From an uncultured Candidatus Saccharibacteria bacterium (GTDB lineage Bacteria > Patescibacteriota > Minisyncoccia > Phycocordibacterales > UBA6899): a stretch of DNA of 64,000 bases. The DNA lies in assembly GCA_964515375.1 (NCBI GenBank), contig CAZERF010000005.1, positions 22,482 through 86,481 of the forward strand, read 5' to 3'. The translations under genes were made by a program, and so were the position numbers. Under the pieces are notes generated by a model. That model saw only the letters and a program-made list of their open reading frames with translations. It had not been told where the DNA came from and did no database searches. Below are positions 1,211-20,300 of the stretch, in pieces. The number at the start of each line of letters is the position of its first letter. The stretch's first letter is position 1.

Positions 1211-1945
1211 TCACACTCCCCACCCCTTCACACCAAGCGCCGCCTGAGCCGCCACTTGCTCCGCGTCTTGCTTGGAGCGACCGTGTCCTTTTGCGATCAA
1301 GTCACTTCCCACGTACACGCCCACTTCAAAGCTTTTGTCATGATCAGGGCCCGATTCCTTGGTGACCACATAATTTGGAGTGATTCCGATCCGCTCCTGT
1401 GCTTCCTCCTGAAAACGACTTTTTGCATCCTGCCAAAGGCGCTTTCCCACAATATCGTCGAGGCGCTTAAAAAGGCTTTTGCCGATGAAGTCGCGAGCGA
1501 TATCGTAACCCTGATCAAGGAAGATCGCGCCGATCACCGCCTCAAATGTGTTCGCCAAGATATATTGTCGCGCGCGCCCGGTATCCTTTGACTCCCCGCG
1601 CGAAAGCAAGAGGTATTCGTTCATATTCCACTCGGTCGCGGCATCGGAGATGGAGTTGGTATTCACGAGTGCGGAACGATATGCCGTGAGTCTTCCTTCC
1701 GGCTCTTCGGGATATTGCGCAAAGAGATATTCAGTGATGACAAGTTCGAGTACCGCGTCACCAAGAAATTCGAGACGTTCGTTGTGACGCATCCCCGTCC
1801 CACGGTGTTCATTCAAGTACGAACGATGTGTGAAGGCCTCACGCAACAGGGTGATGTCCTTGAACGCGACACCGATACGTGCCGCAAATTGCTCATAATC
1901 GAAAGTGGAGTGTTCCATGATGTGGAGCACCATTCTCAAAAGCAC
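1211..1945 (-). CDS. rnc: Ribonuclease III
   Basis: ERLEFLGDAVLELVITEYLF RNase III signature plus C-terminal dsRBD. The true start may be the internal Met at about 1924. Confidence 0.9.
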   Translation of the reverse strand: MLLRMVLHIMEHSTFDYEQFAARIGVAFKDITLLREAFTHRSYLNEHRGTGMRHNERLEFLGDAVLELVITEYLFAQYPEEPEGRLTAYRSALVNTNSISDAATEWNMNEYLLLSRGESKDTGRARQYILANTFEAVIGAIFLDQGYDIARDFIGKSLFKRLDDIVGKRLWQDAKSRFQEEAQERIGITPNYVVTKESGPDHDKSFEVGVYVGSDLIAKGHGRSKQDAEQVAAQAALGVKGWGV

Positions 1946-2090
1946 TCAAAATAATGATAAGGGAGTGTTTTTGAGAAAGGTCCTTACAAAAAAGACTAAC
2001 AAATCCAACCAACTTTGACAAGCGGCGCGCGCACGTGGTCAAATATCCATAGCGTACAACGAATACTTGATCTCGAAGAAAAAAGGGTGA

Positions 2091-3005
2091 TCACGCAGCC
2101 TTCTGCATGATGATCGTCAAACCCTTCGTAATGATCGGAAGAATGTCGTCGTAGATATTGAGATCAACGATCTCGGACGCCTTGAACCATCGTGCGTCAT
2201 CGAGTCCACCCTTCCCTTCCTCAAGCGCAAGCGCCTCAAGCGGTGCCGCCGCCAAGAAATAGGTCACATGCTTGCGGATCTTGCCGTTCTCGGGATGCGA
2301 GGCGATGTATTCATTCTCACCGAGTTTTTCTTCGATCACGATAGTGGCGTCAATCTCTTGTTTGATCAAACGAACAGTGCCGCTCTCGGGAGTCTCTCCT
2401 TCTTCCATATGCCCCTTCGAGAGTGTCCAGTGTCCAAAGATGTCATGTACGAGAGCAAGATAGATCTCCCCCCCGGTGCGCGAGTACACCACCGCGCCAC
2501 CCAGACGCTCGACAGGAAGTGTCGCGGGGTCAACGACCTGCTGAGCACGACGCTCTCGAGGCTGGGTCGTTTCGTCCTTCCCCGGCTCGCCGATCTCCTT
2601 GTAGACTGCCCCCAGGACACCATTGACGAATTTGCCACTGTTTTCGCCACCAAAGGTCTTGGCAAGCTCGATCGCCTCATTGATCGCAACCTTGGGAGGA
2701 ACCTCACCGCGATCGCCAAAAAGAAGCTCACAGAGGCCGATACGAAGCACATTGCGGTCGACAACGGAGATACGGTCAATAGGCCACGCAGGGGCGGCCT
2801 TTTCGATGATGCGATCGAGTTCGGGTTGCTTGGCGAGAACGTTTTTGAGTAACGTCTCGATGAATGTATTGTCATTGAGTCCGGGCGCAAACTCGGCAAC
2901 ATTGCGCGCAATGACCTCCTCGACACCTGAGGGGTTGCGACCATTGAAGTCCCATTCAAAAAGGGTTTGCAATACGATACTGCGTGAAAGGTGCCGATTT
3001 GCCAT
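2091..3005 (-). CDS. nusB: NusB antitermination domain fused to a C-terminal Nudix hydrolase domain
   Basis: N-terminal about 140 aa is NusB-like (LSRSIVLQTLFEWDF...AINEAIELAKTFGGENSGKFVNGVLG). After a linker comes a Nudix fold with box GHMEEGETPESGTVRLIKQEIDA, degenerate versus GX5EX7REUXEEXGU. Confidence 0.75.
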   Translation of the reverse strand: MANRHLSRSIVLQTLFEWDFNGRNPSGVEEVIARNVAEFAPGLNDNTFIETLLKNVLAKQPELDRIIEKAAPAWPIDRISVVDRNVLRIGLCELLFGDRGEVPPKVAINEAIELAKTFGGENSGKFVNGVLGAVYKEIGEPGKDETTQPRERRAQQVVDPATLPVERLGGAVVYSRTGGEIYLALVHDIFGHWTLSKGHMEEGETPESGTVRLIKQEIDATIVIEEKLGENEYIASHPENGKIRKHVTYFLAAAPLEALALEEGKGGLDDARWFKASEIVDLNIYDDILPIITKGLTIIMQKAA

Positions 3006-3028: not shown

Positions 3029-3057
3029 AGTATAGGTAAATTACCCTTTCAGGTCAA
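3029..3057 (-). promoter_or_regulatory. Sigma70-type promoter TTGACC-N17-TATACT for nusB-nudix
   Basis: Minus strand: TTGACC tgaaagggtaatttacc TATACT, about 23 nt upstream of the ATG at 3005. The same hexamers occur upstream of the thrS leader. Confidence 0.5.
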
Positions 3058-3099: not shown

Positions 3100-3399
3100 C
3101 TATTCGGCTGCTTTTTCTTCTTTCTTTTTTGTCTCCTTCTTCTTTTCTTTCGTCTCCTTCACTTCCTCCGCGGGGGCGGCCTCTACGCCCTTCTTCTCCG
3201 CCTTCTTTGCTACACGGAGTGTTTTCTTCATCGTATCGACGACCTCACGGCCGCGATAGGTGCCACAATTTCCGCAAACACGATGCATCAAATGCTCTTT
3301 ATTGCACTTTTCGCAGACGACAAATCGTGCACCCTTGAGTGCATGATGTGAACGACGGTTCGCCGTGTGGCCCTTTGTGTGTCGCATTCTTACAACCAT
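3100..3399 (-). CDS. rpmF: 50S ribosomal protein L32 (zinc-ribbon form) with Lys/Glu-rich C-terminal tail
   Basis: RRSHHAL motif, CEKC...CGNC zinc ribbon. About 45-aa KKAEKKGVEAAPAEEVKETKEKKKETKKKEEKAAE extension. Confidence 0.85.
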   Translation of the reverse strand: MVVRMRHTKGHTANRRSHHALKGARFVVCEKCNKEHLMHRVCGNCGTYRGREVVDTMKKTLRVAKKAEKKGVEAAPAEEVKETKEKKKETKKKEEKAAE

Positions 3400-4060: not shown

Positions 4061-4170
4061 AGTAATGAAGTGAAGAAATGACAACAAAAAAAAGATCCTT
4101 GACAAAACAACAAAAAACGTGCATTATCCCCAATAGAAGTACTCTATTCACAACCGTAAAGGAGAAAGCC

Positions 4171-4887
4171 GTGGACGTCCCCTCTTTTGGCGCAGGTGTG
4201 TTCGCCGGACTGAGCATCTGGTTCTGGGTGTTGCTCTTCATTGAGGCAGGCCTAGGGATCTTCTTAGTCCGTAGTGGATACGGACTGATAGGTGCGTTGT
4301 CGATCATCGCATTCTTTCTCGTCGCGCACTTTTTGACGGGGTTTGATGTCGTTGCCTTCGTCACGCTCTACTGGCACTGGATCATTCTCTGGTTTTTTCC
4401 TGTTGGGGTTTTCGTATCGTTTCTCAAATGGGATCGTTACGTAAAGCGAACACTCGCAGATGTCCAAAAAGATATTTCTTGCGCCATGAAGGAAGCAAGC
4501 CACGAACTTCGAACAACTCGCTGGGAAGACCAAGAAGAGACAACAAGGGTTGCGGGGAAAATAACCTTGCCAGATGATGTCCGCAAGGACCCGGAGAGAA
4601 TCGAAGCAATGGCGAGTGATCTAGACAAGGGAGTGACACCGGAGTGTCTTGTCACACATATTCGCCGGACCCTTCACTACCATCCCGACCTCATCAACTG
4701 GAAAGAGAACAAGAGCCGCATTGCAAGCTGGGTCATCTTCTGGCCGTTCGCACTGATCGGATATTTCTTCGACGACCTTCTTGATGTGATCATCGGCTTC
4801 TTTGGTAAGGCATACACCAAGATCGAAAAGAGGAACATCAGCAACTCCAACATTGACGTACGATTCATTGAGAGTGAAGTGAAATAA
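4171..4887 (+). CDS. Hypothetical polytopic membrane protein
   Basis: AAGGAGAAAGCC-GTG start context. Several hydrophobic helices. Ends TAA, followed by a hairpin plus T-run (4897-4930). Confidence 0.5.
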   Translation: MDVPSFGAGVFAGLSIWFWVLLFIEAGLGIFLVRSGYGLIGALSIIAFFLVAHFLTGFDVVAFVTLYWHWIILWFFPVGVFVSFLKWDRYVKRTLADVQKDISCAMKEASHELRTTRWEDQEETTRVAGKITLPDDVRKDPERIEAMASDLDKGVTPECLVTHIRRTLHYHPDLINWKENKSRIASWVIFWPFALIGYFFDDLLDVIIGFFGKAYTKIEKRNISNSNIDVRFIESEVK

Positions 4888-20182: not shown

Positions 20183-20300
20183 CATTTGAGTGTGCTCGTT
20201 CTGTGGAGCCGGCAGTCAGGCTTGAACTGACGACCTACGGTTTACAAAACCGTTGCTCTACCAACTGAGCTATGCCGGCATTACGCGAGCACACTCAAAT
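20183..20300. repeat. Perfect 16-bp inverted repeat (catttgagtgtgctcg / cgagcacactcaaatg) bracketing tRNA-Thr
   Basis: Arms at 20183-20198 and 20285-20300. The spacer contains the complete tRNA. Confidence 0.8.
20204..20280 (-). tRNA. tRNA-Thr (anticodon UGU), CCA encoded
   Basis: GCCGGCAUAGCUCAGUUGGUAGAGCAACGGUUUUGUAAACCGUAGGUCGUCAGUUCAAGCCUGACUGCCGGCUCCA folds as a cloverleaf: 7-bp acceptor stem, GCUC/GAGC D-stem, ACGGU/ACCGU anticodon stem, loop UUUGUAA, T-arm GUCAG-UUCAAGC-CUGAC. Confidence 0.9.

Follow-up and report, generated by a model that had tools for sequence, protein, structure and literature searches.

Fusion of the antitermination factor NusB to a Nudix domain in Parcubacteria, with a degenerate Nudix box and conserved putative ligand residues in one lineage

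Introduction

NusB is a BoxA-binding rRNA antitermination factor and is among the most conserved transcription factors of bacteria. To our knowledge, it is a standalone protein outside the clade described here. In the 64-kb stretch of contig CAZERF010000005.1 that was analysed in this study (hereafter the window), one open reading frame (ORF) of the minus strand, nusB::nudix, encodes a NusB domain followed by a Nudix domain, and the Nudix box of the latter lacks two of the glutamates expected at its catalytic positions. The locus raises the question of what a Nudix domain with an altered active site does on an antitermination factor, and whether it is an enzyme, a binding module, a scaffold or the product of an erroneous join. 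An earlier interpretation made from the letters of the window (the sequence-only reading) had described the protein as NusB joined to a Nudix hydrolase of the RppH type and had raised the idea of a binding-only module. Here, the composition of the protein, its distribution, the state of its Nudix box and the conservation of its putative ligand residues are reported, and the explanations are weighed against each other.

Domain composition of the fused protein

The ORF was read through from its ATG start codon with no internal stop codon or frameshift. This bore out the description of a single 304-amino-acid (aa) frame joining a complete NusB to a Nudix domain, to which the strand is added here. 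Both domains scored above the curated cut-offs of their hidden Markov models (HMMs), at levels that chance would not produce. For the NusB part, the Pfam model PF01029 was matched by residues 7-136 over profile positions 3-133 of 133 (E = 2.2e-34, 119 bits, cut-off 23.1), and the NCBIfam nusB equivalog model TIGR01951 was matched with 127.9 bits against a cut-off of 88.35. The AlphaFold2 (AF2) model of this domain consisted of seven helices with a predicted local distance difference test score (pLDDT) of approximately 85-95. A Foldseek search matched the domain with Aquifex NusB in the NusB-NusE-BoxA complexes (3r2c/3r2d) and with 4eya at template modelling (TM) scores of 0.86-0.88; Aquifex NusB is approximately 34% identical to the N-terminal 138 residues of the window protein. 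Identity with RsmB/Sun was considered and rejected: the corresponding models produced weak matches of 29-45 bits, to the N-terminus of RsmB, against cut-offs of 269-540, and no methyltransferase domain is present in the window protein.

The AF2 model of the whole protein, built on an alignment of 63 sequences, had a mean pLDDT of 84 and showed two confident domains connected by a disordered linker. In linker residues 140-157, pLDDT fell under 50, and the NusB and Nudix domains had no fixed orientation towards each other (predicted TM score 0.49). The linker region (aa ~137-166, window positions 2508..2597 of the minus strand) carries the family-invariant motifs Y-K-E-[IL]-G-E-P-G-K-D-E and D-P-x-T-L-P-x-E-x-L-G-G, which could constitute a short linear docking motif.

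Affiliation of the Nudix domain

The C-terminal domain was identified as Nudix both by HMM, with residues 175-283 matching the Pfam NUDIX model PF00293 (E = 1.9e-8, 34.9 bits, cut-off 21.1), and by fold. A Foldseek search against the PDB produced 495 matches at E ≤ 0.001, the bulk of which were Nudix proteins together with NusB chains. The leading Nudix matches were, in order, the Aquifex diadenosine tetraphosphate (Ap4A) hydrolase aq_158 (3i7u, TM 0.87-0.90), MutT1 of Mycobacterium smegmatis and the diadenosine hexaphosphate (Ap6A) hydrolase Ndx1 of Thermus thermophilus (1vc8, TM 0.87). These were followed by the Ap4A hydrolase of Caenorhabditis elegans (1ktg), the diadenosine polyphosphatase Rv2985 of Mycobacterium tuberculosis, CT771 of Chlamydia trachomatis (4mpo), whose structure holds the products of Ap4A hydrolysis, and human NUDT2 (3u53). 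Ranks 1-13 of the Nudix fold matches were occupied by diadenosine polyphosphate (ApnA) hydrolases and MutT1.

Sequence matches of the Nudix domain in the PDB were CT771 (4ilq/4mpo, 4e-6), Ndx1 (9e-5) and the C. elegans Ap4A hydrolase (5e-4), and the alignment showed the motif H-W-T-x-x-K-G-H-x-E-x-G-E to be common to the window domain and these ApnA hydrolases. The RppH-type label did not hold. The NCBIfam RppH model NF001936 reached 18.1 bits against a cut-off of 118, and BdRppH stood at rank 46 of the fold matches with a TM score of 0.65. By sequence and modelled fold, the Nudix domain belongs with the ApnA hydrolases and not with RppH proper, because ApnA hydrolases lead both the fold and the sequence matches and the RppH model falls far short of its cut-off.

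Among the relatives of the Nudix domain, a standalone protein of 140 aa with a canonical box (P0243; locus L083, 5001..5423) was found among genes for GGDEF, HAD, M20 peptidase and Na/Pi-cotransporter proteins. This context is that of a free-living bacterium and does not resemble the candidate phyla radiation; it is consistent with an origin of the domain from an ordinary ApnA hydrolase of housekeeping type.

Distribution of the fusion

The fusion was found in all of the closest relatives. Each of the 120 best clusters at 90% identity, which are 66-100% identical to the query, carried PF01029 and PF00293 at a length of approximately 300 aa, and these clusters were drawn from independent NCBI, JGI, ENA and Logan assemblies. 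The named ones were recorded as 'transcription antitermination factor NusB' of Candidatus Lloydbacteria, Paceibacterota or Patescibacteria; Lloydbacteria are members of the Parcubacteria group of Patescibacteria. A search with the Nudix domain alone against 1.84 billion representatives at 50% identity produced 143 matches at E ≤ 1e-10. Approximately 40 full-length representatives had an N-terminal NusB domain, as determined with local HMMs built from the family, with Nudix identity reaching down to approximately 28%, and the short matches were mostly contig fragments.

The phylogenetic distribution, which the sequence-only reading had named as a check, was obtained from a scan of a collection with one genome per species. 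With loci confirmed, the fusion was present in at least 597 species genomes of Parcubacteria/Paceibacteria, and the named species records among the matches listed belonged to Lloyd-, Kaiser-, Nomura-, Adler-, Zambryski- and Yonathbacteria, Paceibacterota and Minisyncoccia. The gene neighbourhood was conserved as well. In 80 retrieved fusion loci, rpmF lay directly upstream in 78, rnc directly downstream in 75 and rnhB further upstream in 52, and the order rpmF–nusB::nudix–rnc also holds in the window. The fusion is a clade-wide architecture of Parcubacteria/Paceibacteria NusB.

Databases label these fused proteins merely as NusB, and full-text literature searches retrieved no paper describing a fusion of NusB with Nudix. 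Each domain by itself is well known; their joint architecture, its fixation across the clade and the repeated catalytic loss with retained binding residues that is described below are undescribed so far.

Two further observations were made on the extent of the family. In a subclade of fused proteins (P0262, P0259, P0273-P0278 and P0280), the C-terminal domain lies beyond detection by Pfam NUDIX and is nevertheless retained, with a total length of approximately 260-304 aa. In addition, two relatives of the Nudix domain, P0212 (577 aa) and P0215 (379 aa), have longer and different N-terminal regions, with a partial NusB-like segment at residues 332-417 of P0212; they may be further fusions or artefacts of gene calling.

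State of the Nudix box

Compared with the Nudix signature GX5EX7REUXEEXGU, the box of the window protein retains G198, E204, R212 and E217, while E213 is replaced by Leu, E216 by Gln and the final Gly by D219. The reading of the box as RL for RE and QE for EE was thus accurate (R212-L213 and Q216-E217 in GHMEEGETPESGTVRLIKQEIDA). The window protein does not match the canonical box, and the family consensus GHIEEGESPEEGTIRELKEEINA is canonical. RExxEE is the metal-binding motif of Nudix proteins; in an enzyme that was studied, the Glu of RE and the second Glu of EE ligate metals, and the role of the base is proposed for the first Glu of EE (PMC5526541). If this assignment is transferred by motif position, E213L would have cost the window protein one metal ligand and E216Q the proposed base, with E204, E217 and E262 kept. 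The active site is predicted to be disabled or severely weakened, since E213L removes a metal ligand and E216Q removes the proposed base.

These replacements are not general among the relatives. All five key residues (E204, R212, E213, E216 and E217) were present in 102 of the 120 closest relatives, among which the double change occurred only in the window protein (RL..QE) and in one 95%-identical cluster, P0002 (RQ..QE). The ancestral fused Nudix domain probably had a canonical box and was catalytic, because 102 of these 120 are canonical. Judged from the same relatives, the double change is recent and peculiar to this lineage and is not a trait of the fusion as such. The altered catalytic residues that the sequence-only reading had emphasised are accordingly real in this protein, with two glutamates replaced, but they do not characterise the fusion as a whole.

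Across the wider family, catalytic residues were lost frequently. A total of 272 full-length fused proteins comprised 148 with a canonical box, 59 that had lost one of the five key residues and 65 that had lost two or more (124 with at least one loss). HMM alignment of 80 species-representative genomes gave 36 canonical proteins, 24 with one loss and 20 with two or more. Among representatives at 50% identity, the box was canonical in 5 of 37 fused proteins versus 17 of 20 standalone ones of approximately 140 aa (Fisher p = 1.5e-7). Fitch parsimony on a rough neighbour-joining (NJ) tree of the fused proteins required at least 33 switches between canonical and non-canonical states. Position 213 is occupied across the family by S, A, K, G, V, I, L, Q or R, a variety that argues for many independent losses.

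The acidic residue E262 (window positions 2220..2222), which lies past the Nudix box, is probably the third metal-binding glutamate. It was Glu in 141 of the 148 canonical-box proteins versus 53 of the 124 non-canonical ones, and this covariation with the box suggests that the residues of the catalytic apparatus are retained together or lost together.

Conservation of putative ligand residues and selection

Residues W193, K197, Y233, K245, Y249, W273 and Y285 were 95-100% conserved even in proteins that had lost two or more catalytic residues; for W193, K197, Y233, K245, Y249 and Y285 the range was 98-100%. In the species genomes, W193, K197, Y233, K245 and W273 were kept in 80 of 80 and Y285 in 79 of 80. 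Ap4A hydrolases hold the P1 phosphate with four residues, namely the His and Lys of H-W-x-x-x-K, a Tyr of loop 5 and a Lys seven residues later, and the adenine is stacked between the loop-5 Tyr and a C-terminal Tyr or Phe (PMC4734340). By identical motif spacing, as opposed to superposition, these contacts would map to H192, K197, Y233, position 240 and Y285. The window protein has H192, K197, Y233 and Y285, all of them conserved; the Lys found at position 240 in the family is Asn in the window protein. Decay of the active site was considered as the origin of K240N and rejected, since the clusters P0003 and P0004 pair N240 with canonical boxes, which places K240N before the decay of the box.

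Selection on the two domains was compared between the window gene and its relative at locus L081, which encodes P0002; both have a degenerate box and they differ at position 213 (Leu versus Gln). The ratio of nonsynonymous to synonymous substitution rates (dN/dS, Nei-Gojobori) was 0.018 for NusB and 0.043 for Nudix; with dS at 0.7-1.3, near saturation, these values are approximate yet far below 1. When pairs of equal NusB divergence were compared and the catalytic positions were left out of the count, identity between Nudix domains was 5-14 percentage points lower in degenerate-box pairs than in canonical ones. By these sequence comparisons, constraint on the Nudix domain is modestly relaxed; the domain is not decaying and is under strong purifying selection.

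Proposed function and alternative explanations

The explanation that we favour, with a confidence slightly on the positive side of even, is that the NusB of this clade carries a Nudix module derived from the ApnA-hydrolase branch that would bind its ligand and be impaired in hydrolysis. The same domain is probably an active hydrolase in the relatives with a canonical box. A predicted disordered linker of approximately 25 residues permanently joins NusB to Nudix. In the proposed mechanism, the NusB part, by virtue of its family membership, would load with NusE on the BoxA of nascent rRNA leaders, and the tethered Nudix part, as its conservation suggests, would bind an adenine-nucleotide polyphosphate ligand without efficient hydrolysis. 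Candidate ligands are a free alarmone of the ApnA type or the 5' end of the nascent BoxA-bearing transcript, carrying a triphosphate or a nucleoside tetraphosphate (Np4) cap. The Nudix domain would thus be a reader or sensor on the antitermination complex, with a presumed effect on antitermination.

The repeated loss of catalytic residues, together with the retention of putative binding residues, is the pattern that marks the conversion of an enzyme into a module for binding or sensing. The idea of a binding-only module, raised from the sequence, fits this pattern, the kept residues predicted to contact the ligand and the Nudix dN/dS of approximately 0.04. Mutations in rnc suppress defects of Nus factors (PMC4807359), which fits the conserved adjacency of nusB and rnc.

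Several points weigh against a binding module impaired in hydrolysis. With 85% of the closest relatives canonical, catalysis is selected in this subclade and the loss in the window protein is recent. E204, E217 and E262 remain, so that residual hydrolysis is possible. The conserved aromatic and Lys residues could be structural instead of contacting a ligand. The count of independent switches carries the roughness of its NJ tree, and the selection estimate carries the near-saturation of dS.

The alternative that survives best, although we regard it as unlikely, is that the Nudix domain of the window protein is still active, as an ApnA hydrolase or as a pyrophosphohydrolase or Np4-decapping enzyme of RNA 5' ends, using E204, E217, E262 and an altered metal site. 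Tethered to NusB, it would serve to process nascent rRNA leaders at their 5' end or to clear ApnA locally. The suggestion of the sequence-only reading, that such tethering would couple the 5'-end chemistry of nascent RNA to the loading of NusB and NusE, is speculative. The window domain has the fold and the motifs of active ApnA hydrolases, and most close relatives are fully canonical with a co-varying E262, which points to a catalytic ancestral function. Another Nudix enzyme, RppH of Escherichia coli, removes Np4 caps and 5' phosphates from RNA (PMC8833179; PMC7044304), and the conserved neighbour rnc ties the locus to rRNA processing. However, two of the three glutamates of RExxEE are replaced in the window protein, one of them by the hydrophobic Leu, and these residues ligate metals or act as the base (PMC5526541). 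Equivalent substitutions, E50Q in Ndx1 and E58A in NUDT2, are present in mutant structures among the fold matches, where their purpose was presumably inactivation. The occurrence of Leu in one sister gene and Gln in the other at position 213 further indicates that this position is no longer constrained.

A second alternative, which appears distinctly improbable, holds that the Nudix domain serves the rRNA antitermination complex solely as a structural or protein-binding module, comparable to SuhB and devoid of a nucleotide ligand. The repeated loss of catalytic residues, with domain and length kept throughout the family, would be expected from such a module, and a motif that stays invariant within the disordered linker speaks for docking of a protein. 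The growth defect of a suhB mutant is not tied to inositol monophosphatase activity (PMC4807359). A pure scaffold, however, would not need the residues conserved at 98-100% that match, by motif alignment, the phosphate-binding and adenine-stacking residues of Ap4A hydrolases, and half of the family retains the complete catalytic box together with E262.

An artefact, in which two genes had been joined by mistake during assembly or annotation or in which a pseudogene domain is decaying, finds its sole argument in the atypical box; its probability is negligible, and it was ruled out by the continuous frame, by the architecture of approximately 300 aa in hundreds of independent assemblies, including the 120 closest clusters, and in the species genomes counted above, by the low Nudix dN/dS and by the confident AF2 models of both domains.

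Returning to the favoured ligand-binding module, a more specific proposal is made tentatively and with clearly less confidence than its general form. Parcubacteria NusB may have a built-in reader for dinucleoside polyphosphates or for polyphosphate- or Np4-capped RNA 5' ends, which would have turned into a non-hydrolysing sensor in many lineages including this one. The level of the alarmone, or the status of the 5' end of the nascent rRNA leader, would then gate the assembly or activity of the antitermination/rRNA-folding complex. If the reader-domain reading is true, it would constitute a previously unknown regulatory input to Nus-factor function. The fusion suggests that the rRNA antitermination complex is directly linked either to ApnA alarmone signalling or to RNA 5'-end chemistry, two active fields for which we know of no connection to Nus factors. 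The family is also a natural experiment in the transition from enzyme to pseudoenzyme: approximately half of its members keep the full catalytic box and approximately half lost it in many independent events, with the putative ligand-contact residues kept.

Genomic context of nusB::nudix

The features of the locus are given in Table 1. No second NusB gene, second Nudix gene or canonical Nudix box was found within the 64-kb window. Rfam and tRNA scans of the window found no rRNA operon, rRNA leader or BoxA, and the only RNA gene detected was that for tRNA-Thr(TGT) at 20204..20279 (minus strand).

The product of rpmF has 99 aa, in which the L32 domain accounts for residues 6-55 alone and is followed by a Lys/Glu-rich tail of approximately 45 aa. 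Between rnhB and dnaE, an ORF of the plus strand (4078..4887) encodes a partly hydrophobic product of 269 aa without a Pfam match, which may be a membrane protein. In a relative (locus L082, 1..1655), dnaE was called as two ORFs with the PHP domain apart from the polymerase core; a frameshift, a split gene or an assembly error may account for this.

Table 1. Features of the nusB::nudix locus, with positions counted from the first letter of the window.
Feature	Position	Strand	Description	Basis
nusB::nudix ORF	2091..3005	minus	ATG start, 304 aa plus stop codon	Pfam and NCBIfam
NusB domain	2592..3005	minus	aa 1-138, all-helical	PF01029 and TIGR01951 above cut-off; AF2 helices 4-138; Foldseek
Linker	2514..2591	minus	aa 139-164, predicted disordered, invariant motifs	pLDDT; family alignment columns
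Nudix domain	2094..2513	minus	aa 165-304, ApnA-hydrolase-like alpha/beta/alpha fold	PF00293; PDB sequence matches; Foldseek
Degenerate Nudix box GHMEEGETPESGTVRLIKQEIDA	2346..2414	minus	aa 198-220	Alignment against family consensus GHIEEGESPEEGTIRELKEEINA
L213 codon	2367-2369	minus	TTG	
Q216 codon	2358-2360	minus	CAA	
Promoter-like site	3029..3057	minus	TTGACC-17-TATACT, ~24 nucleotides 5' of the nusB::nudix ATG	Consensus match alone
Terminator-like hairpin and T-run	2080..2111	minus	Hairpin at 2111..2090; overlaps the nusB::nudix stop codon	Consensus match alone
rpmF	3100..3399	minus	Ribosomal protein L32; conserved upstream neighbour of nusB::nudix	Pfam
rnc	1211..1945	minus	RNase III; conserved downstream neighbour of nusB::nudix	Pfam

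Comparison with known systems

Canonical NusB, as in E. coli, Aquifex aeolicus and Thermotoga maritima, is a standalone protein of approximately 140 aa, whereas the window protein adds a conserved linker and a Nudix domain of 140 aa at its C-terminus. A precedent for a NusB fold joined to an enzyme acting on rRNA is RsmB/Sun, in which a NusB-like N-terminal domain is combined with an rRNA 5-methylcytosine methyltransferase; the NusB part of the window protein differs in being the nusB equivalog itself.

Precedents for the proposed role are provided by NrtR and SuhB. In NrtR, a Nudix effector domain and a nucleic-acid-binding module together regulate transcription (PMC2330246), and the Nudix domain of NrtR stood at rank 16 of the fold matches. 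NrtR differs in having a C-terminal DNA-binding domain and a Nudix domain of the ADP-ribose pyrophosphatase branch, whereas the window protein combines the RNA-binding NusB with the ApnA-hydrolase branch. By Pfam and NCBIfam, no NrtR-type DNA-binding domain is present in the window protein, in which NusB is the sole partner domain, and NrtR is used here as an analogy alone. SuhB brings an enzyme fold to the rRNA antitermination complex, where its role appears to be independent of catalysis (PMC4807359, PMC6614797, PMC6614801). It differs in having an inositol monophosphatase fold, in being a separate polypeptide that binds NusA and in having no homology to the window Nudix domain.

The ApnA hydrolases (3i7u, Ndx1, CT771, Ap4A hydrolase/NUDT2 and MutT1/Rv2985) share with the window protein the motif H-W-T-x-x-K-G-H; a putative loop-5 Tyr, a downstream Lys cluster and a C-terminal aromatic residue correspond by motif spacing. 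They have a canonical RExxEE and are standalone or, in the case of MutT1, fused to other domains, whereas RLxxQE and a fusion to NusB characterise the window protein. Finally, RppH has the Nudix fold in common with the window domain and acts on RNA 5' ends, Np4 caps and ApnA, a range of substrates that overlaps with the ligands proposed here (PMC8833179).

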